Shown here: piece after piece, positions 1 through 54,790 of the stretch
Layout of the letters: every line of letters starts with the position of its first letter
Position numbering within the stretch: position 1 is the first letter of the stretch
Sequence record: MT446415.1
Length of the DNA stretch: 64,000 nucleotides
Strand: one strand, 5' to 3'
Source: Escherichia virus TH44
Notes under the pieces: model-generated
What the model was told of the DNA's origin: nothing
Seen by the model: the letters and a program-made list of their open reading frames with translations, nothing else
The model's database searches: none
Position numbers and translations under genes: made by a program

Positions 1-236
1 AATGAATAACCAAACTGGTCAGCGAACTTTTTAATTTGATTAACCAAACCGTATGGTAATTTACGATTGTAATCCAGGAGGCGGATTCGTCCGTCCCAAA
101 CTCCCTGCTTGAACTTTGGATTGAAGCGATAGTTTTCAGCTTCGAAGCTGAAGTAATCACGGAGTTCGTAGAAGATTCCATCTTCACATTCAACATGCAC
201 GTGACTAAAATTTAGAAAGTTGATTTTAATATCCAT
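1..236 (-). CDS. uvsW: UvsW helicase, N-terminal part (gene continues past window start)
   Basis: Reverse-strand ATG at 236; translation MDIKINFLNFSHVHVECEDGIFYELRDYFSFEAENYRFNPKFKQGVWDGRIRLLDYNRKLPYGLVNQIKKF resembles recalled T4 UvsW N-terminus; truncated by window edge. Confidence 0.8.
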   Translation of the reverse strand, partial: MDIKINFLNFSHVHVECEDGIFYELRDYFSFEAENYRFNPKFKQGVWDGRIRLLDYNRKLPYGLVNQIKKFADQFGYS

Positions 237-264
237 GATGATTCCAAGGTAATAAATATATCTA

Positions 265-272
265 TATTTATA
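265..272 (-). promoter_or_regulatory. T4-type late promoter TATAAATA upstream of uvsW
   Basis: Plus-strand tatttata = reverse-strand TATAAATA, about 29 nt upstream of uvsW ATG. Confidence 0.5.
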
Positions 273-290
273 CACTAACCGAGGTTCATC

Positions 291-956
291 ATGATTGACA
301 AGAACTACATTGAGGAAATTCGTGTCCTCGAGAAAAAAGAAGCCAAAGAAAAATTAGCTGAATATGCAGCATCACTTGGTGTTGATGTTAAGAAAACAAA
401 AACCTTTGATAATATGTTGGCTGACCTGGAAGCAGGACTTAAAGCATTTGCTGACATGCCTATGCCTGATGATAATGAAGGCCTGAGCATCACTGACCTT
501 ATCGATGCCGATGATGAATTGTCAGGTGCTAAATTTGATGGCGATGAGTCAGCTAAAGAAGAAGCTAAGCTCTTATTTGATGCTCCAACCGAAGCAAAGG
601 TTGAAGTTGTTGAAATCGAAGAACCAGTTGTTTTGGTCGAAGAAGATGTTCCTTTTGTCGAAGAAAAGTTCGAAGCAGCTGTTGCTAAGGTTATCGAATC
701 TGAAAAACCTGTATTTGCTCTGCCAAAAAACTTTAGTCCAAATCTTATGCTTATTGGCAAGAACCCTGGATTCTGTACTGTTCCATGGTGGATTTATCAG
801 TGGATTTCTGAGACTCCGGATTGGAAAGAACGTCCGACTAGCTTCCAACATCCTACTGCACACCAAACACTATTCAGCTTGATTTATTACATCAATCGTA
901 ATGGGTCTGTTCTAATACGAGAAACTCGTAACTCATCTTTTGTCACTTTAAAATAA
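291..956 (+). CDS. inh: Inh-like protein (prohead protease inhibitor position), acidic N-terminal half
   Basis: 221 aa ORF with GAGG RBS; immediately upstream of hoc as in T4; identity assigned by position and composition only. Confidence 0.55.
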   Translation: MIDKNYIEEIRVLEKKEAKEKLAEYAASLGVDVKKTKTFDNMLADLEAGLKAFADMPMPDDNEGLSITDLIDADDELSGAKFDGDESAKEEAKLLFDAPTEAKVEVVEIEEPVVLVEEDVPFVEEKFEAAVAKVIESEKPVFALPKNFSPNLMLIGKNPGFCTVPWWIYQWISETPDWKERPTSFQHPTAHQTLFSLIYYINRNGSVLIRETRNSSFVTLK

Positions 957-965
957 GGGTTTATT

Positions 966-2378
966 ATGGCTTATACCGTAGCTATTGCTCCTTTGGCGGC
1001 TACGGCCGTTATTGGAGCAACAACCAATTTCACTGCAACCGGCTCTGGCGCTGCAGCTGAAGGTGTTGAATCATTTGTATGGACCGTTAATGGCGTTCCT
1101 CAATCTTCTGTGACTGCAGCAATGGCTTATGTCGCTGTTGGTCCAGCAGGCAGTAAGACTATTAAAGTTGTTGCAACCACCACTCCAGCAGAAGGTGAAC
1201 CGGAAACTGCTGAGGCTGAGACAACTTTAACTATCCAGAATAAAACAATGCCTGCTATTACATTGACTTTAGACCCTGCCTCTGTTACTAAAGAAGTGGG
1301 ACAATCTCAAGTTGTTACTGCTAACGTGACGGGTGCTCCTTCTGGTGCAACAATCACTTACGTTTGGAAACGTAACACTAGCGTAATCGCAGGTCAAACC
1401 GGTAAAACTATTACCGTAACCGAAGCGGCGGCAGCAAATTATACATTGAACTGTGAAGTTACTGTTTCTGCACCCGATTATAATAATGGTACTGCAACTA
1501 AAGGAGCTGCGGTATCTTTTGTTAAGAAAACTATGACAGGTGTTTCCGTTACTTTAACGCCCGCCTCAATTAGTACAGAGAAAGACTCACCTGCACAGTT
1601 TAAAGCGGATGTAGTCGGCGCTCCGGTCGGCGTAAAGGCAACTTATTCTTGGAAGAAAAATGGTTCTATTATTCCAGGCGAAAGCAGTAATATTCTTGCT
1701 GTTGATACGTCTACAATAGGTTCTTACTCTATTGAAGTTTCGGTACTCCTAACAGGTGCGGATTATAATGATTTAACCGTTACCAAAACAGGAAGTGTAG
1801 CAATTACTAAAAAGACTATGACAGGTGTTTCCGTTACTTTAACGCCGGCTTCTATTACCGTCTCTGAAGGACTCCCAGCTTCTTTTAAAGCTACCGTAGC
1901 CGGCGCGCCTAGTGGTGCTACTTTTGCATATTCTTGGAAGAAAGACGGTTTAGCTGTTGCTGGCACCACGGATACCCTAGCAATCGATACAAGCGCTGAA
2001 GGTTCACAGGTTATTGAAGTTTCTGTTGTGGTTTCGGCGACTAATTACAACCCAGTGACTGTCAAAAAAACTGGTAATGTAACAGTCACCGCTAAAGTCG
2101 CTCCTGAACCAGAGGGCGAACTACCTTACGTTCATCCGCTACCAGTTCGTAATTCAGCTTATATCTGGTGTGGTTGGTGGGTTATGGATGAAATCCAGAA
2201 AATGACTCTTGAAGGCAAAGACTGGAAAACCGATGACCCTGATAGTGATTTCTATCTCCATCGTTATACTCTTCAAAAAATGATTGCCGATTATCCAGAG
2301 GTCGATGTACAAGAATCCCGTAATGGATATATTATCCATCGTTCGGCTCTTGACGCAGGTATAATTTATTTTTACTGA
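966..2378 (+). CDS. hoc: Hoc head outer capsid decoration protein with extra Ig-like domain
   Basis: 470 aa; C-terminus PEPEGELPYVHPLPVRNSAYIWCGWWVMDEIQKMT...YPEVDVQESRNGYIIH matches recalled T4 Hoc capsid-binding domain; repeated Ig-like modules. Confidence 0.9.
   Translation: MAYTVAIAPLAATAVIGATTNFTATGSGAAAEGVESFVWTVNGVPQSSVTAAMAYVAVGPAGSKTIKVVATTTPAEGEPETAEAETTLTIQNKTMPAITLTLDPASVTKEVGQSQVVTANVTGAPSGATITYVWKRNTSVIAGQTGKTITVTEAAAANYTLNCEVTVSAPDYNNGTATKGAAVSFVKKTMTGVSVTLTPASISTEKDSPAQFKADVVGAPVGVKATYSWKKNGSIIPGESSNILAVDTSTIGSYSIEVSVLLTGADYNDLTVTKTGSVAITKKTMTGVSVTLTPASITVSEGLPASFKATVAGAPSGATFAYSWKKDGLAVAGTTDTLAIDTSAEGSQVIEVSVVVSATNYNPVTVKKTGNVTVTAKVAPEPEGELPYVHPLPVRNSAYIWCGWWVMDEIQKMTLEGKDWKTDDPDSDFYLHRYTLQKMIADYPEVDVQESRNGYIIHRSALDAGIIYFY
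1531..1847 (+). repeat. Internal direct repeat in hoc (Ig-domain duplication, about 285 bp period)
   Basis: 32-bp identical segment actatgacaggtgtttccgttactttaacgcc at 1531-1562 and 1816-1847; protein KKTMTGVSVTLTPASI occurs twice. Confidence 0.8.
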
Positions 2379-2427: not shown

Positions 2428-4458
2428 ATGAGTGTAGAAGTAATTTTGGTAACTAAGTACACTATACCTGAACTTATCCAAGCCGTTAATGAAAAACAAA
2501 CGGTTGGATATTTTCCTGCTTGTGGTGTTCTTTATTTTAATAATAGATTTACCCAATTAATGACCTTAGACACAAATGCTACAGAAGTTCCATCAGCACC
2601 TTATACCATAATAGCCGAACAAAACGGTGTTTTATGGGCGGAAGCCGCTTCAGCTTTTGTGGATGCAAATCCGACAGCAGAATGCTTATCACCTGTAGAA
2701 TATATAGATTCGCTATACATGCAAGCTTATGGGGACGCAAGGGCCGCATCCGGTGGCGGTTCGACGGGGCCTAAAGGTGATACCGGTCCAATGGGTCCAA
2801 TGGGTCCTCAAGGTATTCAAGGGCCAATAGGTCCAGAAGGTCCCCAAGGTTTAAAAGGAGAAAAAGGTGATACTGGTCCTCAAGGTCCTCAAGGTCCACA
2901 GGGAGTAAAGGGAGACACAGGAGCAACCGGTTTAACTGGGGCTGAAGGGCCACAAGGACCTATAGGTTTAACGGGCCCTAGTGGAGCCCAGGGTGTTAAA
3001 GGCGATACAGGTCCTCAAGGACCCCAGGGTTTGAAGGGTGAAAAAGGTGATACCGGACCGCAAGGCCCACAAGGAGAACCAGGCACCGGCAATGGCGGTC
3101 TGAAATGGTATACAGAAGATGCTGGTAAAACTTATCCTATTATAGATGTGGACCCAAATTTATCACAAATAGGAATGGGTAATCCAGATGGTGGATACGT
3201 CCAATTAAAATTTATGACCGGAGGCAATAACGCTGGACATATAATGGCTGATGATGGGACCATGACGTTATGGAAAACCCAGCAAAGCACACTCAATCTT
3301 TCGGATAACTCGGCAGCACTGCATAACCATGCCAACGTGGAACTTGCCAATGCTGACATGACGCTTAACATGGATGGGCGTGACTTGACTGTTAGTGATG
3401 TGGATAGTATTCGTCTCCAGCTCAATGCGGACAGAAGCGCTCTGGTGGCGCCGGCGGACGTTGCAAACGTGACAGTATCCACTGAAGGCACTGCACAGGT
3501 CATGGCTAATACTTACATCCAACTGAATGCAGTAAACAACAGGTCTATAATTCAGCTAGACGAATCCGCTATCACCACAAGGTCAGGTCGCTCAAACACT
3601 GAACTCACAGATGCTACATACCGTGCCAGTGCGCCGGACTTAGACGGCCGAATTTCGTTGACTCTGGGTCCGCATGCAAAGTTCCTGGCTACACCTACCA
3701 ATACTGCAATCAATTTTAGTAAAAGTACTGTAACAACCAGAATGCTCATGGATAGTACCGGGATAAACATTGAAACATTAACCGAGGCACCTGTGTTTAT
3801 ACGGAATGTCGATAAGGTGGTTTATACGGCTGATAAAGGTGTGGCTACCATTGGACGGGGTGATTATACACAGGTCGTTGACCAAACTGGGGTAGTAATC
3901 ACTACGGGTGCAGGTAATGTAAGCACTCAAAATGCCACTGGATTTATTAAAGACACTGCCGGCGAGTATCAGTACCGCATCGACAACAAATTGGTATTCT
4001 TCTCTAGTGGGGACATTACAAGAATTAACACAGATGCTTGTGGTGTTGAACTTGATAATGGTTCAGGCATTGCTTATAATAGTGGCACAGGCGAACATAC
4101 TTTTCTTGGCGGTAACGTAGCCCCAGGTGCGGCCAATATAAGTTTAGGTGGAGCTGTTGCTCCGTGGGCTTCAATTTATCTGGATAGTTCTACCCCACGT
4201 GTAATTCAGACCAACACGGCCCACGCGGAAGTCCCAGCTGCTACAATAGCTAAGATGGCTACACTTGTCCCACAAGCTCTGAACACAGCATCCGGTGGCT
4301 TCACAATGGGATATGTTTACGAGGATGTGATTGCAGCTTTAGGCGCCGTCGATGCTGAACTCTACGGGCTTGCATGGATGGAAGGCGGGAAGAAGGTCAT
4401 TAACCCTGTTGCAATACTTGCTATGGAGGCGTTATACGTTCGTAGTAAATTAGTCTAA
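2428..4458 (+). CDS. Collagen-like repeat protein (fibre-like), about 36 G-X-Y triplets plus large C-terminal domain
   Basis: 676 aa ORF with GGAGG RBS; residues about 112-225 are uninterrupted GPQGPQG/GDTGP Gly-X-Y repeats; inserted between hoc and rnlB-side small genes. Confidence 0.8.
   Translation: MSVEVILVTKYTIPELIQAVNEKQTVGYFPACGVLYFNNRFTQLMTLDTNATEVPSAPYTIIAEQNGVLWAEAASAFVDANPTAECLSPVEYIDSLYMQAYGDARAASGGGSTGPKGDTGPMGPMGPQGIQGPIGPEGPQGLKGEKGDTGPQGPQGPQGVKGDTGATGLTGAEGPQGPIGLTGPSGAQGVKGDTGPQGPQGLKGEKGDTGPQGPQGEPGTGNGGLKWYTEDAGKTYPIIDVDPNLSQIGMGNPDGGYVQLKFMTGGNNAGHIMADDGTMTLWKTQQSTLNLSDNSAALHNHANVELANADMTLNMDGRDLTVSDVDSIRLQLNADRSALVAPADVANVTVSTEGTAQVMANTYIQLNAVNNRSIIQLDESAITTRSGRSNTELTDATYRASAPDLDGRISLTLGPHAKFLATPTNTAINFSKSTVTTRMLMDSTGINIETLTEAPVFIRNVDKVVYTADKGVATIGRGDYTQVVDQTGVVITTGAGNVSTQNATGFIKDTAGEYQYRIDNKLVFFSSGDITRINTDACGVELDNGSGIAYNSGTGEHTFLGGNVAPGAANISLGGAVAPWASIYLDSSTPRVIQTNTAHAEVPAATIAKMATLVPQALNTASGGFTMGYVYEDVIAALGAVDAELYGLAWMEGGKKVINPVAILAMEALYVRSKLV
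2761..3095 (+). repeat. Collagen-type triplet (G-X-Y) coding repeat
   Basis: ggtcctcaaggtcc-type 9-bp periodic units encoding GPQ/GDT/GEK triplets. Confidence 0.8.
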
Positions 4459-4465
4459 AAAAAAA

Positions 4466-4493
4466 TGGGAGAGCGAAAGCTCTCCCATTTTTA
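4466..4493 (+). terminator. Rho-independent terminator after collagen-like gene
   Basis: TGGGAGAGC-GAAA-GCTCTCCCA stem-loop followed by TTTTT. Confidence 0.8.
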
Positions 4494-4494
4494 T

Positions 4495-4524
4495 GTTTAC
4501 AAGTTAAAAATTCCATGTTAAGAT
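4495..4524 (+). promoter_or_regulatory. Candidate sigma70-type early promoter (-35 GTTTAC, -10 TAAGAT)
   Basis: GTTTAC at 4495-4500, 18-nt spacer, TAAGAT at 4519-4524, upstream of ORF at 4542. Confidence 0.4.
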
Positions 4525-4541
4525 AGCTTCACTAACTCAAC

Positions 4542-4745
4542 ATGAGAATCATTATGGATAAGGTTAAAGTACATTTTTTACACGAATCTGGTATGACATT
4601 TATTGAAATCGCCAAGGTACTAGGCGGGACTGCTAAAGAGATGGCAAAGGCCTGGGTTGATGTAGAACAAGCCAAAGCTAAATTTAAAGCGAAAGAAAAG
4701 ATTGTTTATCGTAAACGTTTGAATAACAAAAAGGTGAAGAAATGA
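4542..4745 (+). CDS. Hypothetical small protein (T4 24.3 position)
   Basis: 67 aa ORF downstream of candidate promoter; positional analogue between hoc and rnlB. Confidence 0.55.
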   Translation: MRIIMDKVKVHFLHESGMTFIEIAKVLGGTAKEMAKAWVDVEQAKAKFKAKEKIVYRKRLNNKKVKK

Positions 4746-5135: not shown

Positions 5136-6143
5136 ATGTTTAAGAAATACAACAGCCTTGAAAATCACTATAACAACAAGTTCATTGAAAAGATTCGCCT
5201 GCAAGGCTTCACCAGCGGTGAATGGGTAGCTCGTGAGAAGATTCATGGTACCAACTTTTCATTAATCATTGAACAAGACAATGTGACATGTGCGAAACGC
5301 ACTGGACCTATCTTGCCTGCAGAAGATTTCTATGGTTATGAAATTGTATTAAAGAATTATGCAGATTCCATTAAAACTGTGCAGAAACTTTTGCAGGATA
5401 TTAATTACCAGGCATATCAGATTTATGGTGAGTTTGCCGGGGCAGGTATCCAGAAGAATGTGGATTACGGTGATAAAGATTTTTATGTATTTGATATCCG
5501 CGTTACTAAAGAAGATGGTTTTGAATCCGTCCTGACTGACACCTTGATGGAAGCATTCTGTATTATCCATAAGTTTAAGGTTGCACCGCGACTGGCTACG
5601 GGTAGTTTTGAAGAATTAATTAAGCTCCCTAATGACCTGGATTCCGTTGTCCCTGATTACAATTTCACAGTGGATAACGCAGGATTGACTACAGCAAATA
5701 CCACTGATTTTGCTGCAAAGGCGGAAGGTAAAGTATTCACTGCCGAAGGATTTGTATTAAAACCTGATGTTCCTGCATGGTTACCTAACGGTGAGCGTGT
5801 AGCGATTAAATGTAAGAACTCTAAATTCAGCGAAAAGAAAAAGTCTGATAAACCAATTAAAGCTGCAGTGGTTCTGAGCCAAAATGATATGGATTTACTG
5901 TGGAATTTCACTGATTATGTGACTGTTAACCGTATCAATAATGTTATCAGTAAAATTGGGGAAGTAACACCGAAGGATTTTGGGAAGGTAATGGGGCTAA
6001 CAGTTCAAGATATCCTGGAAGAAGCCGCTCGTGAAGGCCTTGAATTGTCCCTGACGGAAAATCCTGTTGAAGTTAAAAAGCAACTTATTGCAAATGTAAA
6101 AGAAACATTAAGACATGTTTGGATTACATTAATTAGTGAATAA
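5136..6143 (+). CDS. rnlB: RNA ligase 2 (Rnl2)
   Basis: 335 aa; [12 protein letters not shown]...[13 protein letters not shown] (adenylation lysine motif KxHG) ... [18 protein letters not shown] closely resembles recalled T4 Rnl2. Confidence 0.93.
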
Positions 6144-6147
6144 AAAA

Positions 6148-6172
6148 GGGCCGCAAGGCCCTTATTCTTTTT
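6148..6172. terminator. Bidirectional rho-independent terminator between rnlB and gp24 paralog
   Basis: GGGCC-GCAA-GGCCC hairpin flanked by A-run upstream and T-run downstream, between convergent stops. Confidence 0.75.
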
Positions 6173-7445
6173 CCAGTGGTGGAAGTTTAACACCAAGATA
6201 AGAACTCAATTGGCTTTGGTTAGCCATCTTATCCATATCAGCACCGTCAATAATGCGAGCTTCTTTATCGTCTTTAGCAACTGTATAAGGGTTCGCAGTC
6301 AATGCATAACGAGCTAACAGTGCAACCGTAGGCTGTAAGCTTTCAGGGTCAACAATAACCTTGAATTCCCCGACCGAGGTATCACCCTCATCATCAACTT
6401 CGCTAAGACCTTCCGTATAAGGCGCATAATACAAAGATGCGACCGTCTGTCCTTCACCCATATCAGCATTTACACCGACAATAACATAATCACATGGACT
6501 GTTCATATCTGCATAAAGCGGCAAACCGTTCTTCAGAACGCCATAGGCTAATTCATCCTGACCTTCCTTTTTCTCAACCCAGCCAGAAGCTGCTAAAATA
6601 GCTGCACAACGGGAAGAAGCGACTGCATATGTACCAGCAAACGAAGTCTGACGTTGAACTGCAGAGTTCATTTCACACATATAATAATACAGGGTTCGCG
6701 CACGGTCCTGAGCATTATCATATTTCGGGTCAGTAAGATTCAATACACCTTTTTCAGAAACACCTTGCACCTTGAAGCGGGAACTAACAGTAATAAGGGA
6801 TTGTAATACGTCCTTATTAATTTCCTCTGCCATTTGAATGCCGAGAATATTATCAATGAAATCTGTTGCATCGAAACCGTTTGCTTCCAGGTCTTGGGCA
6901 AGCTCAACAGTTAAAGAAGTTTTCAGCTTTCTGGATTTAACTTCGGTCTGCCATTTATCGATACGGAAACCCGCTTCGGCAATTTCAGGATGACCTTTTT
7001 CAAATTTATCAGTGAAAGCTGCATCTGACATCATTCTTATATGACCAGCAGCAATGGCTTCAGAAATAACTTCACCCAAATCAGTTTCGAGAGTCCCGGC
7101 GAATGGTGATGCTTCCAAAACTTTGAACACAACACTTTCAAACTGGAACATATCGCCGACTGCATAAGCTTCGTCTTTGTTTGTAAATTCTGGAATATTC
7201 TTACGCTCGAACATACCAATCTGTCCTGCAAATGTTGCTCCACCGAGATAAGTCATTTTATCATCTGGGTTCAGGACGCGAACACCATACAGCGCAGCAA
7301 CAGGCTGGGTAGTTTTCTGTTCAGCAACGAGTGCTTTAAAAATTCGTTTATTCGTAGCCTGAGTATAAGAAAGCAAATTAGGACGGGCGACCTGGTTGGC
7401 CGCCGTTAATGTTGATTCGTGAATTAGTGCGTTAATCTTTTGCAT
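6162..7445 (-). CDS. Capsid vertex protein gp24 paralog (second copy, more divergent)
   Basis: 427 aa; shares MxKINxL, QPVAALYGV, KSRKLKT, TVELAQDLEANGF, NKDVLQSLITVS, ANPYTVAKDDKEARIID with upstream copy; ATG directly abuts stop of upstream copy. Confidence 0.85.
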   Translation of the reverse strand: MQKINALIHESTLTAANQVARPNLLSYTQATNKRIFKALVAEQKTTQPVAALYGVRVLNPDDKMTYLGGATFAGQIGMFERKNIPEFTNKDEAYAVGDMFQFESVVFKVLEASPFAGTLETDLGEVISEAIAAGHIRMMSDAAFTDKFEKGHPEIAEAGFRIDKWQTEVKSRKLKTSLTVELAQDLEANGFDATDFIDNILGIQMAEEINKDVLQSLITVSSRFKVQGVSEKGVLNLTDPKYDNAQDRARTLYYYMCEMNSAVQRQTSFAGTYAVASSRCAAILAASGWVEKKEGQDELAYGVLKNGLPLYADMNSPCDYVIVGVNADMGEGQTVASLYYAPYTEGLSEVDDEGDTSVGEFKVIVDPESLQPTVALLARYALTANPYTVAKDDKEARIIDGADMDKMANQSQLSSYLGVKLPPLEKE

Positions 7446-9169: not shown

Positions 9170-10729
9170 TTAAATTCCTTTAACATACACGCGGCGGAAG
9201 TAACCGTTCAAGCCGAGGCTATTAACGATATCCGGCATGCCGTTCTGAATGCGCTTGGTCGGAGCCTGAGCAGCAGGGTCAGCAAACGGGTTGATACCGA
9301 TACCGTAACGGGTTTTGAAGCCCATAACCGGCTGGAAGTTTTTCGGGTCAGAGCCACGCAGCGGGGTCAGTGCAACATATGGTGCGTAGTAGATACCAGC
9401 ATCCATTTCGTTAGCACCTTTGTAACCGATGGTGAAGTAATCGGAGCGAGCATACTGGTCGATATAGACACGGTATTTGCCACCCAGAACACCAGCGAAC
9501 ACAGCTTTAGTGGTGTCAACGTTGAAACCTTTACCCAGACCCTGAGCAGCATAACTAACAGAAGTATCAACAGCGGCCAGTACGTTAACTACGTTACGGG
9601 AAGCGATGATGAAGTTACCTGCACCACGACCGGTCTGACGAGCGATTTCAGCGGCTTCTTTATCAATCTGGAACAGTAAAGCTTTGAAGCTTTCACCAGC
9701 CCAACGAGCGCCACGGATATCAATCGGGTCCTGGAAGTCAAACACACCAGCTTTAGCGCCAACGGTGTTGGTCATACCAGATTTACCAACCTGTGCGGAG
9801 TAGTTAATCCAATCGATAACTTCGCGGTTGATTTCCAGCATAATTTCGGTAGCCAGAATACCACTCAATTCGGCATCAGCATCCATACCGTGAACAGCGC
9901 GCAGGTCCTGTGCCAGTTCGATGGAGTAGCTTGCTTTCAGCTGACGGGATTTAGCTTCGATAACTTGTTTGTCGATACGGAAGCCCATTTCGTTCCACGG
10001 GTTATCCTGGGAACCGTTAAAACCTTCTTGCAGTTCGGCGATGGAGGTAGCCATACCTTCAGCCAGTTCAGCCAGCTGACCAGCTTCCAACAGAGCGGTA
10101 ACAGCAGCGTCAAGTTTAGCAGCATCGGTAGCAGCAGCATCAACAGTTACAGCTTCAACAGCCTGGAAGTGTGCAGCACCGGTAGCTTCGAAGAAGTAAG
10201 AATAAATTTTACCAACTTCAAGAACTTTACCCGCAGCCAGTGCTTCAAAAGTCTGAGCAGCGCCCTGACCAGAGAACATAGCATTCGGAGCATACATCGG
10301 ATGGAAAGCTTCTTTAGCGCCGGCAGCGACAGGGTCTTTACCGTATACTGCACGCAGTGCAAATACCTGACCAGTCGGGTTGTTCAGAGGCTGTACGCCA
10401 CAAATATCAAACGCAATCAGATGCGGGATAGCACGACGAACCATACCCATAACTGCCGGCCCAATCTGAGTTACTGCACCAGAGGTCTGGCCAGCAGCGA
10501 TATTGGTAGCATCATAACCATGGTCACCACCGATTTCAGCTTCGGTCAGGAAAGAACCAAATGCTTCGGAGATTTTTTCGTCACGGTATTCAGGAGCGGT
10601 CAGAATATCTTGTTCCTGGTTTTCAAAGATTTTAGCGATGATAGCTTGTTTAGAAGCACCAACGATTTCAGGAAGAGCTTCGTTTTCCAGCAGAGCGGAC
10701 CATTTTTGAACTAATGCATTCTTTTTCAT
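9170..10729 (-). CDS. 23: Major capsid protein gp23
   Basis: 519 aa; position between gp22 and gp24; shares FRIDKQVIEAKSRQLKA/ELAQDL block with gp24. Confidence 0.93.
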   Translation of the reverse strand: MKKNALVQKWSALLENEALPEIVGASKQAIIAKIFENQEQDILTAPEYRDEKISEAFGSFLTEAEIGGDHGYDATNIAAGQTSGAVTQIGPAVMGMVRRAIPHLIAFDICGVQPLNNPTGQVFALRAVYGKDPVAAGAKEAFHPMYAPNAMFSGQGAAQTFEALAAGKVLEVGKIYSYFFEATGAAHFQAVEAVTVDAAATDAAKLDAAVTALLEAGQLAELAEGMATSIAELQEGFNGSQDNPWNEMGFRIDKQVIEAKSRQLKASYSIELAQDLRAVHGMDADAELSGILATEIMLEINREVIDWINYSAQVGKSGMTNTVGAKAGVFDFQDPIDIRGARWAGESFKALLFQIDKEAAEIARQTGRGAGNFIIASRNVVNVLAAVDTSVSYAAQGLGKGFNVDTTKAVFAGVLGGKYRVYIDQYARSDYFTIGYKGANEMDAGIYYAPYVALTPLRGSDPKNFQPVMGFKTRYGIGINPFADPAAQAPTKRIQNGMPDIVNSLGLNGYFRRVYVKGI

Positions 10730-49737: not shown

Positions 49738-50292
49738 ATGAGCTTATATAATGACCTTATATCAAATGTAGAATGGTTTGGCGGTAGTGGTCTTGCTACT
49801 GAAACTAATACAGTTCTTTATAGAATCCGTGGTGACTTGGGTTATTCCAATGATTTCTTAAGAAGAACAACTAGCCGTGGACACACTACAAAATTGCCTT
49901 TTATTTTTGCTTTAGCTGAAGACCTTTCTTTCGCAGATGCCTTGGAAATTATTGATGTAAATCTGGGTATTCAACGAGTGGAATTCGGTGGGCTGAGTTA
50001 TTCCGTGTATGCGTTAAATGACCCAAGCGATTATAGGCAACTTATTAATGCGAACGATGATGACCATTTGGTGTGTTATTTGATGTTGGAAAATGGTGAC
50101 CACTTTGGAATGGTTGACCGCCGACCAGCTTATACTGATATTAAAAATTATGATAAAGATGAGCTTCTTGATTTGACGTCTGAGTACACATTAGAGAGTC
50201 GTAAACAAAAACGAAAGCTTAATCGTTTTATTGCTGAATGTCGTGAATATGCTAAAGAGGTTCAAAATGCGAACGTTATATCTGCCAAATAA
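49738..50292 (+). CDS. Hypothetical protein
   Basis: Trimmed start MSLYNDL with GGAGAGGAG RBS; 184 aa. Confidence 0.55.
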   Translation: MSLYNDLISNVEWFGGSGLATETNTVLYRIRGDLGYSNDFLRRTTSRGHTTKLPFIFALAEDLSFADALEIIDVNLGIQRVEFGGLSYSVYALNDPSDYRQLINANDDDHLVCYLMLENGDHFGMVDRRPAYTDIKNYDKDELLDLTSEYTLESRKQKRKLNRFIAECREYAKEVQNANVISAK

Positions 50293-50626
50293 ACCAGAAA
50301 AATTTGTATACGCAAACAAGATTGATAAAGACTTGATGCCTCCATTTGGAGCTTTGTCCATGTGCATCGTTGGGGTTATAATGATGGTGCTTTGTGGGGA
50401 TATGGATATCATTAGTGTCGGAGTCGCCTGGGCACTAATAATCGCAGCTCCTTTTATTACAGTCCTGAGCATGATTTTGATAAATGTGTGGCATCAAAAT
50501 CATATGAATAAAGGATATCGTGGGCGAGTTAAAGAGTGGGAACAAAAATGTATTTCCCTACAAGAAGAGCACAAAATTAAATGTGCAGAAGAATTTATCA
50601 AGGAGGTTCGTAATGGAACGGCCTAG
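50267..50626 (+). CDS. Membrane protein with C-terminal EEFIKEV motif
   Basis: Trimmed start MRTLYLPNKP (AAGAGG RBS); two hydrophobic helices. Confidence 0.55.
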   Translation: MRTLYLPNKPEKFVYANKIDKDLMPPFGALSMCIVGVIMMVLCGDMDIISVGVAWALIIAAPFITVLSMILINVWHQNHMNKGYRGRVKEWEQKCISLQEEHKIKCAEEFIKEVRNGTA

Positions 50627-50966
50627 TCTTGCATCACATGTTTATCAATTGGCTGAATATGATATTGGTGCCAGTTTATTATTAGGGATACCCACCGCCA
50701 TGCTTGGTGGTTTGGTTGGTCTGGTAATGACCACGGTTATGGCTGCAATCGAGGGAGTGATGCCCATTGAGATGGGTTTCTTTATGATAATCGCTCCGGC
50801 TGTTGTGTCTTATTTTATCCCTGTTGTGTATGATATCTGCCACACAAACGCCGTGAATGCTCCTAGTCGGAAGAGATATGCTTCAGCAATGGCTGAGTAT
50901 AATAAGTTCCTAGACAAAACAAAACGTAATGACCTTGAAACCTTTATTAAGGAATGTAAATCATGA
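50613..50966 (+). CDS. Membrane protein with C-terminal ETFIKECK motif
   Basis: Trimmed start MERPSLASHVYQ (AAGGAGG RBS); hydrophobic helices. Confidence 0.6.
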   Translation: MERPSLASHVYQLAEYDIGASLLLGIPTAMLGGLVGLVMTTVMAAIEGVMPIEMGFFMIIAPAVVSYFIPVVYDICHTNAVNAPSRKRYASAMAEYNKFLDKTKRNDLETFIKECKS

Positions 50967-51253
50967 ATAAAATTGAAATTGCTATCCCCAAGTATTATGA
51001 TGAGAAATCTGCAGAAAAAGCTATCTATTCTCTTCTAAATAAGACCTCTGAAATTGAAAAACACTGTGAAGAAATCGCAGATGAATATGGTATCGAATTC
51101 AGCACTGGCGATTACGGCACCGGCCGTACATATCACCCAGTCGGTTATGAATGTTCCGAATGGTTCGCTCACCATATTGAAAACAACGGCGGGCAAGTTG
51201 AAAACGGCATTGTTACTGTTGGTGCCTGGGTTTCCTCTTCTGAGGTGTGCTAA
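50963..51253 (+). CDS. Small protein, member 1 of W-x-S-S-x-x-C C-terminal family
   Basis: 96 aa ending GAWVSSSEVC. Confidence 0.6.
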   Translation: MNKIEIAIPKYYDEKSAEKAIYSLLNKTSEIEKHCEEIADEYGIEFSTGDYGTGRTYHPVGYECSEWFAHHIENNGGQVENGIVTVGAWVSSSEVC

Positions 51254-51254
51254 T

Positions 51255-51536
51255 ATGATGAATGATTACCGTAAAAATAAAGAACTGGCTAACGCAGTAA
51301 ATGATATCCATAAAGCTATTCGTCGTGCCGAGGAAATTGCAAACAAATATGAGACTCATTTTAATATATACCCTGCTCGCGGTATGGGCGGTGACTATTA
51401 TTCTCCTGGCGCCCTGAAAGCTGACCTTGCTCATTGGGAAGAACATGGTCATCCTGAATGGGCTATTGTTAATACTCATGACTATACAACTGACCTGGAA
51501 AAAGGCGGTTGGGTGTCCTCCTCTTCTGAATGTTAA
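51255..51536 (+). CDS. Small protein, member 2 of W-x-S-S-x-x-C C-terminal family
   Basis: Trimmed start MMNDYRK; 93 aa ending GGWVSSSSEC. Confidence 0.6.
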   Translation: MMNDYRKNKELANAVNDIHKAIRRAEEIANKYETHFNIYPARGMGGDYYSPGALKADLAHWEEHGHPEWAIVNTHDYTTDLEKGGWVSSSSEC

Positions 51537-51544
51537 GGAATGTT

Positions 51545-51742
51545 ATGTCTCGTGAATTAGATTGTGCAATCCGTACTGCTGCGGCAGCTATTGAAAACGT
51601 TATCCAGATTTGTAAAGAAGAGCGTGAAGAAGCTGATATCTATATTGACGGTCAGCGTAATCTGGAACGTCATATCACGCTTTATAATGGTTGTATTACA
51701 ATTAGTGGTACCTCTTGGGTGTCCTCCTCTTACGAATGCTAA
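51545..51742 (+). CDS. Small protein, member 3 of W-x-S-S-x-x-C C-terminal family
   Basis: Trimmed start MSRELDCAIR; 65 aa ending TSWVSSSYEC. Confidence 0.6.
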   Translation: MSRELDCAIRTAAAAIENVIQICKEEREEADIYIDGQRNLERHITLYNGCITISGTSWVSSSYEC

Positions 51743-51751
51743 GGAAATAAA

Positions 51752-51970
51752 ATGACTACTAAAACTGTTAAAGAAATTGAAGACCAAATCCGTGCACTAA
51801 TCTGTGAAGGTGAACAACTGGCCGATAAAACCGGCGAACACTTCTGTAGCGGTGGCGAAGAATATATTCCAGCTTCTAGTCCGGAATATAACGATTACGA
51901 ATGGGTTCGTGATGAATATTGTATTCCAGAAGGTGAAGGTTTCTGGTTTAACTCCTCTATGTCTTGCTAA
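51752..51970 (+). CDS. Small protein, member 4 of the family
   Basis: 72 aa ending GFWFNSSMSC. Confidence 0.6.
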   Translation: MTTKTVKEIEDQIRALICEGEQLADKTGEHFCSGGEEYIPASSPEYNDYEWVRDEYCIPEGEGFWFNSSMSC

Positions 51971-51979
51971 GGTGATAAA

Positions 51980-52213
51980 ATGACTACTGCTGTTGAACAT
52001 GCTGAATTAGAAAAAGCTGCCCTTGAACTGGCCGCGCTGTATAAGAAAGTAAAAGATATGGCTTTTGCTCAAGATTTCGGTGTCGAGCTTGATGATTATG
52101 ACGGCGAAGTTCGTCTTGAAGATTGGTTGAATAGCTCTTGTTACGGTGAAGAAGCTGGTCGTACCTTCGTTGCTCGTGCCGATGGTAAAATCTGGTATCC
52201 GAGTAGCTGCTAA
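51980..52213 (+). CDS. Small protein, member 5 of the family
   Basis: 77 aa ending KIWYPSSC. Confidence 0.6.
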   Translation: MTTAVEHAELEKAALELAALYKKVKDMAFAQDFGVELDDYDGEVRLEDWLNSSCYGEEAGRTFVARADGKIWYPSSC

Positions 52214-52316
52214 AATTATCACAAGGATGTGATAGGAGGACTTATGTGCAGAAATTTAGTGTACAAGCCTAAAGAAACGTAGTATCATTATCTCGTCAAC
52301 TAATGAGGAAAATATT

Positions 52317-52484
52317 ATGTATAATGTTCTTATTGTTTTTGTCACTCACCCGCAAGGTGGAGTAAGACAGAATACTTCTCAAGTGGTTCAATTTTCTTCA
52401 CTAGAGGCCGCCAATCTTGCTGCCTCACGAATTGAAGCGAAAAAATCGGCACTTGGAAAATATGAAGTAACTCGTCTTTACTAA
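52317..52484 (+). CDS. Small hypothetical protein (55 aa, below ORF-track cutoff)
   Basis: ATG 52317 preceded by conserved aatgaggaaaatattATG initiation region (also at 52485 and 53503). Confidence 0.45.
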   Translation: MYNVLIVFVTHPQGGVRQNTSQVVQFSSLEAANLAASRIEAKKSALGKYEVTRLY

Positions 52485-52497
52485 TGAGGAAAATATT

Positions 52498-53457
52498 ATG
52501 ATGTTAGTTATTGGTTCTCGTGCATTACATAACGCTGGTCTGATTGAAAGTCAGAAAATTGAAAACTCTGATTGGGACTTTATCGCTGACCAGGGTTCTT
52601 GGAACCACTTTAAAGCACGTATGTTCGGGGCTCATGTTCCTGTGGATAACCCTAACGTCCAAGCTTTTAAATGTATGTACAATGGCAAAGAAACCTATTT
52701 TGAAGCTTATATTGTCCGTGCCCTGACCAATGTCAGAGAAATTACTGGTGAGCTTCAAGACGAAGATTTCACCTCAAGTTATCGTCTCTTGAAATACGCT
52801 GAAAATCATATTAAGAAAGACCGTCTTACAGGTTTCTATTGGGCGACGCCTGATATTTGCCTGGCGATTAAATTGTCTCATCGTTACCTGAAGAACAATC
52901 CATTCTTCCTGAAGACCATGAGTCATATTAATTACCTTCGCAATAAGGGTGTTGTTCTTAATGATGAACTGCAAAAAATCATGCTACAGCGTCAGGCAGA
53001 AACATTGTCATATAGTCACCCTAAACTAGACGTGGGCAAGAAAACTTTCTTTAATGATACAATCTATACCCTTGACCATGACTCCATCCACGAGGCCGTG
53101 GCGCTTGCTGATAAGCCTGCATATAAGTTCTATATGAAGGATGATTCAGAAGTCATGACCTCACGTGAAAAATTTGAAGCACTCCCTGATGTTATTAAAC
53201 TGGCAGGGGTTTATGAAGAAGCATGTGTGCTCGCTCTGGAGCGTTCGCAGGTTCCTAATGAGTTCAATATCTCTCCATCCGTGAGCTTCCATGTTGCGCT
53301 GGAAAAAGTCTGCACCTCCATTACTTCTGGATGGTTCCGTGAGTACGCCTGGGAACATTACCAGGAAGTGGTTAATATGTATAACACCCTGGGTCGCGAA
53401 GACTATGTTAAACGCTTCAAGGCTAACCAACATTTAATTCGCCCTTTCACAAAATAA
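52498..53457 (+). CDS. Candidate nucleotidyltransferase-fold protein
   Basis: 319 aa; N-terminal LVIGSRAL ... SDWDFIAD resembles hG[GS]...DxD nucleotidyltransferase signature, with unusually long spacing. Confidence 0.6.
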   Translation: MMLVIGSRALHNAGLIESQKIENSDWDFIADQGSWNHFKARMFGAHVPVDNPNVQAFKCMYNGKETYFEAYIVRALTNVREITGELQDEDFTSSYRLLKYAENHIKKDRLTGFYWATPDICLAIKLSHRYLKNNPFFLKTMSHINYLRNKGVVLNDELQKIMLQRQAETLSYSHPKLDVGKKTFFNDTIYTLDHDSIHEAVALADKPAYKFYMKDDSEVMTSREKFEALPDVIKLAGVYEEACVLALERSQVPNEFNISPSVSFHVALEKVCTSITSGWFREYAWEHYQEVVNMYNTLGREDYVKRFKANQHLIRPFTK

Positions 53458-53516: not shown

Positions 53517-54203
53517 ATGAACAGTCCAAAAACTTTTAATTCTCAAGCTCGTGCAGTAGGCGGATTTGCAGGTCATATTTCTAATGATGATATTAAAAAC
53601 GAGCCTATGTTCTTTAACTGTGATTTGAATTTTGCTGCACAAAATGGCGGTCCTATTACTCGTAGCTTTATTACTAATCTCCCTGATGAGTGGAAAGCCG
53701 CTGAATGTGTATTTGATTCTCGGGTTCATATGTTGATGCCTGGTTGGTATCCTGCTATCCCAGGGTATCATCATGACGATGTACCACGCCCAGATATTCC
53801 GGTTGGTCAACACTTTATTACTGCAGGGCAACCTGATTATGATAATCCTCGTTACCATTCTGAACATATTCTTGGTCTTGTTAACGCTGATGTGTGTCCT
53901 ACTTATTTTGCAACCGGAACTGCACAATTTAGTCAGATTCCTGAAGGCGAACTTATCTATCGCCAGTGGCATAAAGAAGTTCTGGAAAAAATTGAGTCCA
54001 ATGAATTAACCAAGTGGGATGCTCCTGACCGTACGTTGCTCCAGTTTGATTGGCAGACATGGCATACAGGTTCTCGCGCAGTAAGTAATGGTTGGCGCTG
54101 GTTTGGTCGCGTATCTCGTAAAACTGACCGCGTTAATAAAATCACCAATGAAATTCGCGTTAATGCTCAAGTATATCTGGAATTCCCTATGGAGGGCTGG
54201 TAA
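53517..54203 (+). CDS. Hypothetical protein (His/Asp-rich core GYHHDDVPRPD)
   Basis: 228 aa; RBS GAGGAAAA. Confidence 0.6.
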   Translation: MNSPKTFNSQARAVGGFAGHISNDDIKNEPMFFNCDLNFAAQNGGPITRSFITNLPDEWKAAECVFDSRVHMLMPGWYPAIPGYHHDDVPRPDIPVGQHFITAGQPDYDNPRYHSEHILGLVNADVCPTYFATGTAQFSQIPEGELIYRQWHKEVLEKIESNELTKWDAPDRTLLQFDWQTWHTGSRAVSNGWRWFGRVSRKTDRVNKITNEIRVNAQVYLEFPMEGW

Positions 54204-54790
54204 TGGCCCTTTATGAACCTGGGTGTATGGGTGTTGATGTAAACTTCATCCGTCGCCCAGAAAATGCAGGAATTATTGTCTCAAGAGACGAATTTATGAT
54301 TACCAAAAGATATTGGGCGGACCTTGATGATGGTGATGAAGGAATCAAGGTTGAAAACGTTGATTGGTCGCGATGCAATCGTCATGTGAAAGAGCTTTTA
54401 ATTAAGGAATATAAAATGGGATATATTGTTAATGGGTATCAACCGGAACCACTCAAAGAACAGACACCCGACCCATTAATTTCTTATAGCAAGAAATATG
54501 GATTTCGTACCTGGAGTGATGAATTTGATAAGTTAATTTGTTCCAGGTTTTATGCCTGGTCTGGAATCTTATTTTTACCATTCCTGTGGTTTTTCCTGAC
54601 AGGTAAAAATGAAGCATCTGTAGCTGTAATGGGCGCGTGCTTTTCTACTGCTCTTGCTGGACTTATTGCATCATTTTTATGGACTATGGTTATTGAAGTA
54701 CCTTTTCGTATTTCTAAAGTTAAAAAGGTGTACGACGATATCACTAAGAAAAATACATTGAACTCTTTTATTGAGGAATGCCGTAAATGA
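54203..54790 (+). CDS. Membrane protein with C-terminal NSFIEECRK motif
   Basis: 195 aa; start overlaps previous stop (TAATG); hydrophobic helices near C-terminus. Confidence 0.6.
   Translation: MALYEPGCMGVDVNFIRRPENAGIIVSRDEFMITKRYWADLDDGDEGIKVENVDWSRCNRHVKELLIKEYKMGYIVNGYQPEPLKEQTPDPLISYSKKYGFRTWSDEFDKLICSRFYAWSGILFLPFLWFFLTGKNEASVAVMGACFSTALAGLIASFLWTMVIEVPFRISKVKKVYDDITKKNTLNSFIEECRK

Follow-up and report, generated by a model that had tools for sequence, protein, structure and literature searches.

Five neighbouring genes of Escherichia virus TH44 (MT446415.1; the whole stretch of 64,000 nucleotides analysed here is referred to as the window) encode small acidic proteins that share a C-terminal Trp-x-Ser-Ser-x-x-Cys tail, and across very different phages such genes lie close to a gene for the same uncharacterised protein carrying DUF7277 and DUF7275, a predicted nucleotidyltransferase. 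This pointed to a two-part phage system, on which no report was found in the paper library searched: literature searches on phrog_899, RB69ORF139c, DUF7275/DUF7277 and phage nucleotidyltransferases returned only general MenT/AbiE papers. The direct contact between the two components is inferred from this linkage.

The earlier note had described five adjacent, coupled genes with a common C-terminal signature, and this observation was confirmed. The five genes are tightly packed on the + strand with intergenic gaps of 1, 8, 9 and 9 nt, the start codon of the first overlaps the stop codon of the upstream e.3-like gene (ATGA), and the TAA stops run into GGA/GGTGA Shine-Dalgarno sequences, as the note had stated. 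They are the only ORFs in the window ending in W-x-[S/N/P]-S-S-x(0-2)-C, and a six-frame scan of all 64 kb for W.{1,3}SS.{0,3}C at a C-terminus recovered only these five. The note had named a codon-usage or repeat artefact, or homologues in related phages lacking the motif, as outcomes that would speak against it, and neither was found: ORF5 encodes Ser-Ser with AGT AGC whereas the others use TCC TCT, all 33 close homologues keep the tail, and a Pseudomonas phage homologue about 35% identical to ORF4 ends in GVWNASSQSC. In contrast to the note, however, the paralogs are homologous over their whole length and not only at the tail, sharing an N-terminal helix, an A-D-x-x-G-x-x-F motif and, in most, a YG(M)GG(T)YYP motif.

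Features of the tail-protein array and its surroundings (positions in the window)
Position	Strand	Feature	Size (aa)	pI	C-terminal tail	Matches and remarks
50613..50966	+	e.3-like membrane protein	117			phrog_2330; the same gene is directly upstream of the array in SP18 and Bas46, and a membrane protein with the same tail is found there in PhiKpNIH-6
50876..50903	+	T4 middle-promoter-like site				MotA box ATATGCTTCA, 12-nt spacer, TATAAT; about 60 nt upstream of ORF1; consensus match only, from a pattern scan
50963..51253	+	ORF1	96	4.6	GAWVSSSEVC	phrog_899, E 1e-21; family HMM, E 1e-21
51255..51536	+	ORF2	93	5.6	GGWVSSSSEC	phrog_899, E 9e-20; RGMGGDYYSP motif; the terminal Cys is its only Cys
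51545..51742	+	ORF3	65 (from the ATG at 51545)		TSWVSSSYEC	phrog_4882, E 2e-36; family HMM, E 0.011; divergent, lacks the YGMGG motif; orthologues in the same arrays in Bas46 and PhiKpNIH-6
51752..51970	+	ORF4	72	4.1	GFWFNSSMSC	phrog_899, E 3e-11; family HMM, E 1e-16
51980..52213	+	ORF5	77		KIWYPSSC	phrog_899, E 7e-9; double-motif subtype; the same W.SS.CYGE...W.SS.C architecture in Shewanella, Aeromonas, Klebsiella and ESCO13 phages
52124..52141	+	Internal second copy of the motif in ORF5				WLNSSC
52217..52234	+	7-bp hairpin just after the ORF5 stop codon				TATCACA-AGGA-TGTGATA, read from the sequence alone
52317..52484	+	ORF between the array and the enzyme gene	55			phrog_20278; found only in VR7 and SP18; no similarity to the 54-aa ORF at the same position in PHB09; not a conserved part of the module
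52498..53457	+	DUF7277+DUF7275 protein, predicted pol-beta-fold nucleotidyltransferase	319	about 6.6		conserved partner gene
53517..54203	+	Downstream neighbour	228			phrog_1843; found only in the enterobacterial T4-like loci; probably not part of the core

All five proteins belong to a phage-only family of about 80 clusters at 50% identity, which is represented in PHROG by two entries annotated only as unknown function, while Pfam, NCBIfam and PDB sequence searches gave no match. The tail is exact in 69 of 77 divergent short representatives, although mean column identity across the family alignment is 19%, and W, S, S and C are the only invariant columns. In 46 of 77 members the terminal Cys is the only Cys, which excludes an intramolecular disulfide or zinc site. 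Moreover, internal W-x-[SNPAT]-S copies number 25 across the family against 1.7 +/- 1.3 in shuffles, i.e., they are about 15-fold enriched, several of them include the Cys, and the same tail also ends longer proteins of 146 and 170 aa, so that it behaves like a modular tag. A word-index protein search with the broad profile returned only 16 hits and added little.

The interpretation offered in the earlier note was partly supported. Its statement that the tail does not belong to a described family holds for the curated databases searched, a shared recognition or modification signal remains the most attractive reading, and its suggestion to consider the product of the gene at 52498 was on target, whereas the product at 53517, suggested alongside it, is lineage-restricted. 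The view of a diversifying paralog array, by contrast, was rejected: dN/dS between the window and the SP18/VR7 orthologues is 0.03-0.2, and the ORF1-, ORF2-, ORF3-, ORF4- and ORF5-type paralogs are each recognisable in other phage genera, namely Mosigvirus, Marfavirus, Aeromonas, Shewanella and Phapecoctavirus phages. They are therefore old, individually maintained paralogs.

Gene linkage is the new result. Starting from the enzyme, family members were found within 1.5 kb of the DUF7277/7275 gene, mostly immediately upstream, in nine phage lineages, comprising the window and other Gaprivervirus phages, Mosigvirus Bas46, Klebsiella Marfavirus, Pseudomonas Otagovirus PHB09 (whose enzyme is 42% identical to that of the window), Shewanella phage Thanatos-2, Aeromonas phage 31.2, Phapecoctavirus ESCO13, Stenotrophomonas phage Ps15 and Acinetobacter phage Melin, as well as in three metagenomic contigs; the linkage covers T4-like, Phapecoctavirus, Otagovirus, Menderavirus and Myxococcus phages. 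Starting from the small protein, the enzyme gene follows the array directly in 5 of 5 contigs that extend far enough, one of these being Myxococcus phage Mx1, and in one case the two genes overlap by 7 nt. The arrangement is not without exceptions, since in Ps15 the small genes are located downstream of the enzyme gene, in Gaprivervirus one to four unrelated genes separate the array from the enzyme gene, and a Streptomyces phage locus with a partial enzyme match has no detectable family member. The enzyme family (731 phage records, 1990 protein clusters) is also wider than the detected small-protein family.

The predicted enzyme carries the pol-beta signature hG[GS]...DxD...[DE], with the GS...DxD...E residues being invariant, and would by this criterion be active. 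Its predicted fold is nearest to MenT1/3/4, which add nucleotides to a 3'-OH, and to antibiotic O-nucleotidyltransferases, which act on hydroxyl groups. At the sequence level, however, Pfam scans of the window enzyme and of 55 homologues at E <= 10 listed only DUF7275 and DUF7277 plus one weak DUF6036 hit, without DUF1814, a PDB sequence-profile search found no MenT match, and no HD-like or DUF1814 relationship was detected for the C-terminal domain.

Our best explanation is that the five genes are ancient paralogs of a phage-specific family of small, very acidic proteins, each with an N-terminal helix, a small beta unit and an (E)-G-x-W-x-S-S-S-x-x-C tail, which would be the cognate partners of the nucleotidyltransferase and be inherited together with it as one early/middle-expressed operon. 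In this view, the W-x-S-S-x-x-C unit is a short, portable tag docking in the active site of the MenT-like enzyme and most likely serves as the acceptor, with a tail Ser hydroxyl (less likely the Cys thiol) taking the place of the tRNA 3'-OH used by MenT enzymes. One enzyme would thus covalently mark a set of differently shaped small acidic proteins, which then act on host targets during takeover or counter-defence. Consistently, several paralogs per single enzyme gene fit a many-substrates pattern better than an inhibitor model, and in AbiEii and MenT3 a Ser is phosphorylated at the active site. The family and its tail, purifying selection on the paralogs, the operonic linkage, and the nucleotidyltransferase signature and predicted fold of the enzyme are supported by the analysis itself, whereas the interaction of the two proteins, the tail as contact point, its modification, the role of the marked proteins, and any toxicity or tRNA-directed activity of the enzyme are inferences. 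We estimate a probability of roughly 0.8 that the small proteins and the enzyme are functional partners and of about 0.45 that the tail is a modification site. Several points speak against this reading, as the protein-modifying pol-beta nucleotidyltransferases GlnE, GlnD, DrrA and MntA target Tyr and not Ser, and the near-neutral enzyme shows no obvious charge complementarity with its acidic partners. In addition, the AF2 model of ORF1 (best-model pLDDT 91.7; only one of five models was confident, the others reaching 49-70) places G-x-W-x in a beta strand, so part of the motif may be structural. A further-reaching version, which the data do not rule out but which we regard as less likely than not, is a phage-encoded protein-tagging system building nucleotide-protein conjugates or, after elimination, a thioether-stapled tail on a panel of small acidic proteins, which would then act as decoys or inhibitors of host nucleic-acid-directed immunity or of translation.

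An alternative option, less likely but not excluded, could be that the small proteins are antitoxin-like regulators, which inhibit or time the activity of the MenT-like enzyme without being modified, the helix and tail occupying the nucleic-acid groove and active site as a pseudo-substrate mimicking the tRNA 3'-end, analogous to the blocking of MenT1 by MenA1. The gene order, with a small gene upstream of and sometimes overlapping the nucleotidyltransferase gene, is the classic antitoxin-toxin layout, and MenA1 is a 68-aa protein with a long helix, usually encoded upstream of a menT-like gene, which blocks two MenT1 active sites (PMC10435456). The family members likewise have a long N-terminal helix and are acidic (mean pI 4.5), as nucleic-acid mimics are, double-motif members such as ORF5 could bridge two enzyme protomers, and the best structural matches of the enzyme are TA toxins. 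However, three to five conserved, non-redundant paralogs per single enzyme gene would be odd for an antitoxin, antitoxins normally co-vary with their toxin rather than keeping four invariant residues across such a divergent family, no sequence or fold similarity to MenA1 or AbiEi/COG5340 was found, and there is no evident reason for a strictly lytic phage to neutralise its own enzyme.

Compared with the MenAT1 pair of Mycobacterium tuberculosis and the wider AbiE/MenAT DUF1814 family, the phage module shares a predicted pol-beta-fold nucleotidyltransferase with a GS...DxD signature encoded downstream of a small helical protein. It differs in that only about half of the 319 residues align to MenT1, the small proteins carry the W-x-S-S-x-x-C tail and come as one to five paralogs, and the system is located in an early/middle operon of strictly lytic phages instead of bacterial chromosomes. 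The type VII HepT-MntA (HEPN-MNT) system and GlnD-PII follow the logic proposed here for the tail, as a nucleotidyltransferase modifies a hydroxyl side chain of its small partner, but these enzymes modify Tyr and their partners, a HEPN RNase or a PII trimer, bear no resemblance to this family; Pfam gave no HEPN or PII hit in the five proteins.

Doubtful in our view is a role as independent effectors, in which the tail would be an intrinsic structural or cofactor element, e.g., a Trp anchor plus Ser helix cap with a terminal Cys forming an intersubunit disulfide or a shared metal or Fe-S site in an oligomer, while the proteins act on host targets on their own, for instance as DNA mimics or anti-defence proteins, and the adjacency merely reflects co-regulation or a shared pathway. 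In support of this, AF2 integrates the W-containing strand into the fold and predicts a short terminal helix, one invariant Cys per chain fits an intersubunit ligand, and strongly acidic proteins encoded in a hyperplastic early/middle region between e.3 and e.2, which T4 itself lacks, with a middle-promoter-like site upstream are typical of host-takeover or anti-defence accessory genes. Yet the adjacency across unrelated phage groups is far tighter than expected for mere co-regulation, the recurrence of the motif inside the variable acidic segment and on proteins with different N-terminal parts is the behaviour of a linear motif and not of a fold element, and no known fold, metal-site family or anti-defence family matched.

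Least likely is a RiPP-like maturation, in which the enzyme would activate a tail Ser by O-nucleotidylation or phosphorylation and, after elimination to dehydroalanine, the terminal Cys would add to form a lanthionine-type thioether ring: although Ser and Cys are paired at short, fixed spacing (S-x-x-C in the main tail, S-x-C or S-C in the W+5 units), internal repeats often carry their own Cys, several precursor-like paralogs accompany one enzyme gene as in lanthipeptide arrays, and invariant or near-invariant His and Cys residues in the C-terminal domain of the enzyme (H128, H174, H194, H198, C243, C272) could form a second catalytic or metal site, no lanthipeptide dehydratase, cyclase, protease or exporter domain was found in Pfam scans of the window and PHB09 neighbours or in the precomputed Pfam annotations of the metagenomic and Mx1 loci, the conserved tail and variable body are the reverse of a conserved leader with a variable Ser/Thr/Cys-rich core, the proteins are predicted to be folded, and nucleotidyltransferase-driven dehydration is not known.

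The observation thereby changes from an odd motif on five hypothetical proteins to a defined two-component module, which is found in phages of Escherichia, Klebsiella, Aeromonas, Acinetobacter, Pseudomonas, Stenotrophomonas, Shewanella and Myxococcus and in marine metagenomes, including phages used as models and for therapy such as the RB69-like and BASEL phages. If the enzyme marks the tail, this would be a new kind of protein modification in phage infection; if instead the small proteins gate a MenT-like enzyme, lytic phages would be carrying a toxin-antitoxin-style tRNA-modifying weapon. Either outcome would give a function to two Pfam DUFs and two PHROGs.

As ip genes lie nearby, we also considered T4 internal, capsid-targeted proteins, which share an N-terminal MKTYQEFIAE-like targeting sequence and are expressed late. 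This idea was dropped, since the N-termini of the five proteins differ (MNKIEIAI, MMNDYRKN, MSRELDCA, MTTKTVKE and MTTAVEHA for ORF1 to ORF5) and no late-promoter TATAAATA occurs between 48.5 and 52.6 kb. In T4 itself, e.3 is located directly next to e.2, and the module is absent from this locus.

The analyzed sequence belongs to a T4-like (Straboviridae) phage closest to the VR7/VR20/SP18 group (Gaprivervirus), with which it shares 92-94% nucleotide identity over 50500-52700. The region of interest lies between homologues of T4 e.3 and e.2, two genes that are adjacent in T4 itself, so that everything between them here represents an accessory insertion relative to T4. The features of this region and of the compared loci are summarized in the following table.

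Features of the window and of the loci from other phages and contigs used for comparison
Sequence	Feature	Coordinates	Strand	Length
Window	e.4-like membrane protein gene	50231-50626		
Window	e.3-like membrane protein gene	50613-50966		
Window	Middle-promoter-like site (MotA box ATATGCTTCA, 12 nt, TATAAT)	50876-50903		
Window	ORF1	50963-51253	+	96 aa
Window	ORF2	51255-51536	+	93 aa
Window	ORF3	51545-51742	+	65 aa
Window	ORF3/ORF4 junction	51736-51763		
Window	ORF4	51752-51970	+	72 aa
Window	ORF4/ORF5 junction	51964-51991		
Window	ORF5	51980-52213	+	77 aa
Window	Interval compared with the SP18 insertion	52214-52316		
Window	Hairpin	52217-52234		
Window	DUF7277+DUF7275 gene	52498-53457		319 aa
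Window	phrog_1843 gene	53517-54203		228 aa
Window	e.2-like membrane protein gene	54203-54790		
L005 (Shigella phage SP18)	Three extra small genes	3226-4078		75, 109 and 66 aa
L006	Proteins with FIKECRK-like tails	4330-4689; 6838-7143		
L003	Proteins with FIKECRK-like tails	1798-2163; 3260-3544		
L002 (PHB09)	Longer tailed protein (PHB09_118)	2634-3074		146 aa
L015 (metagenomic)	Longer tailed protein	3071-3583		170 aa
L009 (ESCO13)	Ser/Thr-phosphatase or Metallophos gene	1540-2283		
L016	Ser/Thr-phosphatase or Metallophos gene	5644-6393		
L007 (Shewanella Thanatos-2)	Region of phage tRNA genes near the nucleotidyltransferase gene	5959-6106		
L010 (Ps15)	Region of phage tRNA genes near the nucleotidyltransferase gene	9833-10484		
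L008 (Aeromonas 31.2)	Nicotinamide phosphoribosyltransferase region	1-682		
L010 (Ps15)	Nicotinamide phosphoribosyltransferase and Nudix hydrolase region	1-1675		

The earlier note's observation of five adjacent small genes sharing a C-terminal tail holds. The ATG of ORF1 overlaps the stop of the e.3-like gene, the later gaps are 1, 8, 9 and 9 nt, and the TAA stops run into GGA/GGTGA ribosome-binding sites. All five proteins end in W-x-[S/N/P]-S-S-x(0-2)-C, and a six-frame scan of the whole 64 kb found this C-terminal pattern nowhere else, while ORF5 additionally contains an internal WLNSSC. The conservation is at the protein level, as ORF5 spells Ser-Ser as AGT AGC and the others as TCC TCT, which answers the concern that the motif could be a codon-usage or repeat artefact. 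The proteins are acidic (pI 4.1-5.6), and the only Cys of ORF2 is the terminal one. Beyond the tail, they are homologous along their length and share an N-terminal helix, an A-D-x-x-G-x-x-F motif and, in most of them, Y-G-(M)-G-G-(T)-Y-Y-P. The ORF3/ORF4 and ORF4/ORF5 junctions are nearly identical over about 23 nt (TGCTAAGG[AA/TG]ATAAAATGACTACT), and ORF4 and ORF5 both start with MTT, which could provide a substrate for unequal recombination or copy-number change.

In PHROGs, ORF1, 2, 4 and 5 fall into phrog_899 and ORF3 into phrog_4882, both of unknown function, whereas Pfam and NCBIfam gave no match. A profile search of 1.84 billion representatives found 81 clusters at 50% identity with E <= 1e-3, almost all of them of 70-140 aa and with the profile end coinciding with the protein end. 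Of the 77 short representatives, 69 end exactly in W..SS..C and 46 have that Cys as their only Cys; the mean pI of the 77 is 4.5. In a 75-sequence alignment with 19% mean column identity, W, S, S and C are the only invariant columns, and the tail logo reads (E)-G-(G)-W-(V/I)-S-S-S-x-x-C. Members occur in RB69, in Aeromonas phages 31 and CC2, in Yersinia, Klebsiella, Enterobacter and Acinetobacter T4-likes, in Phapecoctavirus, in Pseudomonas Otagovirus PHB09, in Stenotrophomonas Menderavirus, in Acidovorax ACP17, in Myxococcus phage Mx1 and in marine metagenomes.

The W-x-S-S unit recurs within the family, with 25 extra internal copies in 23 of 77 proteins, against 1.7 +/- 1.3 in shuffled sequences (maximum 6 in 500 shuffles). 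Several of these copies have their own Cys at W+5, e.g., in ORF5, in the Shewanella, Aeromonas and ESCO13 orthologues and in members from two further loci (L013 and L020). Moreover, the same tail ends longer proteins, namely PHB09_118 (...DWDSSSMYC) and a metagenomic protein (...GPWDSSSAYC), which have an unrelated N-terminal part, end in the same helix plus tail, and lie in the same clusters upstream of the nucleotidyltransferase gene. This is how a portable linear motif behaves.

The earlier note's interpretation was only partly supported: a shared recognition or modification signal remains an attractive inference, but the proposed diversifying paralog array was contradicted by the data. dN/dS between the window and SP18 or VR7 orthologues is 0.03-0.2 for ORF1, 2, 3 and 5, similar to the flanking genes. 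The subtypes are old: ORF1-, ORF2- and ORF3-type genes stand in the same order in Mosigvirus Bas46, all five types occur in Klebsiella phage PhiKpNIH-6 in a different order, and the double-motif ORF5 type is recognizable in Shewanella, Aeromonas and Phapecoctavirus phages.

The key new finding is a conserved partner gene, which encodes a DUF7277+DUF7275 protein (Pfam E 2e-26 and 1e-75) downstream of the array. In Pseudomonas phage PHB09, which belongs to a different phage group, a family member (...GVWNASSQSC) is followed by a 109-aa protein with a similar tail (...IKWAASNHNC; not scored by the HMM), and both lie just upstream of a DUF7277+DUF7275 protein 42% identical to that of the window. 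To test this linkage, loci around the enzyme gene were fetched from diverse phages and scanned with an HMM of the small family. Members were found within about 1.5 kb in Shewanella Thanatos-2, Aeromonas 31.2, ESCO13 and Acinetobacter Melin (upstream, mostly directly), in Stenotrophomonas Ps15 (directly downstream) and in three unrelated metagenomic contigs, the one exception being a Streptomyces phage, where only part of the enzyme matched. In the reverse direction, starting from small-protein members, the gene following the member or array is DUF7277+DUF7275 in all five contigs long enough to tell (Mx1, one JGI contig and three Logan contigs), and in one of them the genes overlap by 7 nt. In line with this, tBLASTN hits for an ORF2-type protein and for the enzyme fall in similar numbers per host genus (Escherichia 192 versus 259, Acinetobacter 64 versus 68, Shigella 17 versus 18).

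In contrast, the 55-aa and 228-aa neighbors in the window are lineage-restricted and not part of the core. The 228-aa protein (phrog_1843, similar to RB69ORF132c) has no Pfam or NCBIfam match and is conserved downstream of the enzyme gene only in the enterobacterial T4-like loci examined. SP18 carries its three extra small genes between ORF5 and the 55-aa gene, while this window and VR7 lack them, so this junction is an insertion hot spot.

The N-terminus of the partner protein reads MLVIGSRAL...(about 15 residues)...DWDFI, and G6, S7, D25, D27 and E69 are invariant in 55 homologues, which corresponds to the pol-beta nucleotidyltransferase signature. Many residues of the C-domain are invariant as well (K125, H128, K139, T140, R165, D193, H194, D195, H198, E240, E241, E248, R249 and others), and some Acinetobacter phage records already call it a putative nucleotidyltransferase. 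The AF2 model is confident (pLDDT 92.6, pTM 0.86), and structural comparison listed MenT1 (9.4), TglT/MenT3 (8.0), the ANT(2'') aminoglycoside nucleotidyltransferase (7.8), MenT4 (7.3), TM1012 (putative nucleotidyltransferase; 7.0) and LnuA (6.3). MenT toxins add nucleotides to tRNA 3' ends, and MenT1 is neutralized by MenA1, a 68-aa protein with a long helix, usually encoded upstream, that blocks two active sites (PMC10435456). In AbiEii and MenT3, neutralization involves phosphorylation of an active-site Ser. At the sequence level, however, the phage enzyme is not DUF1814.

With respect to expression, a MotA-box middle-promoter-like site lies inside the 3' end of the e.3-like gene, about 60 nt upstream of ORF1, and no TATAAATA late promoter occurs between 48.5 and 52.6 kb. 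Together with the orientation shared with the T4 e.x genes, this suggests early/middle expression, although the site is a consensus match only. A perfect 7-bp hairpin (TATCACA AGGA TGTGATA), followed by GGAGG, is located just after the ORF5 stop and could be an RNA processing or stability element, or a weak terminator, ahead of the 55-aa gene.

Altogether, our analysis established a phage-wide family with an invariant, modular C-terminal tag, strong purifying selection on the paralogs and an operonic partnership with a nucleotidyltransferase that appears active from its sequence, whereas the recognition of the tag by this enzyme is an inference. We tentatively favor a substrate role (probability about 0.45), in which a tail Ser hydroxyl would stand in for the 3'-OH or sugar hydroxyl used by the closest structural relatives. 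This is based on the invariant Ser-Ser, the repeated units, the appearance of the tag on different protein bodies and the presence of several paralogs per single enzyme gene. The reading rests on no direct evidence, the protein-modifying pol-beta enzymes of which we are aware target Tyr, part of the motif is modelled inside the fold, and the enzyme family is wider than the detected partner family. The main alternative, possible but less likely, is an antitoxin-like pseudo-substrate that gates a MenT-like enzyme, as supported by the gene order, the long helix, the acidity and the MenA1 precedent. An independent structural or metal-binding role appears unlikely, and a RiPP-like Ser-to-Cys thioether is the least likely option.

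No paper in the literature searched mentions these families or the motif. The nearest described systems combine a nucleotidyltransferase toxin with a small partner (MenAT/AbiE, HepT-MntA). The system studied here lacks the DUF1814 signature and antitoxin homology, but adds the invariant tag, conserved paralog sets and a lytic-phage setting, features that those systems lack. We therefore regard it as a variation on this theme, with a real chance of being something more unusual.

Further observations concern the genomic surroundings. The nucleotidyltransferase gene often lies near phage tRNA genes, as seen in Thanatos-2, where it is located directly before tRNA-Arg and tRNA-Met, in Ps15 and in the window itself, which is positioned in the e-tRNA region; on these individual examples, this would fit a tRNA-directed activity. 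In two unrelated contexts (ESCO13 and locus L016), a Ser/Thr-phosphatase or Metallophos gene lies within 1-3 kb of the DUF7277/7275 gene, which may matter if the tail Ser is reversibly modified, or may be coincidence. Nicotinamide phosphoribosyltransferase, accompanied by a Nudix hydrolase in Ps15, lies a few kb upstream of the module in two distant phages, Aeromonas 31.2 and Ps15. Finally, a second family with a C-terminal motif flanks the module, as the e.4-, e.3- and e.2-like membrane proteins end in ...FIKECRK-like tails (EEFIKEVRNGTA, ETFIKECKS, NSFIEECRK), and in other phages (loci L006 and L003) the tails are ENFIKECRK, NLENFIKECRGK, AFLKEMRK and NRFIKYCRGKHVS.
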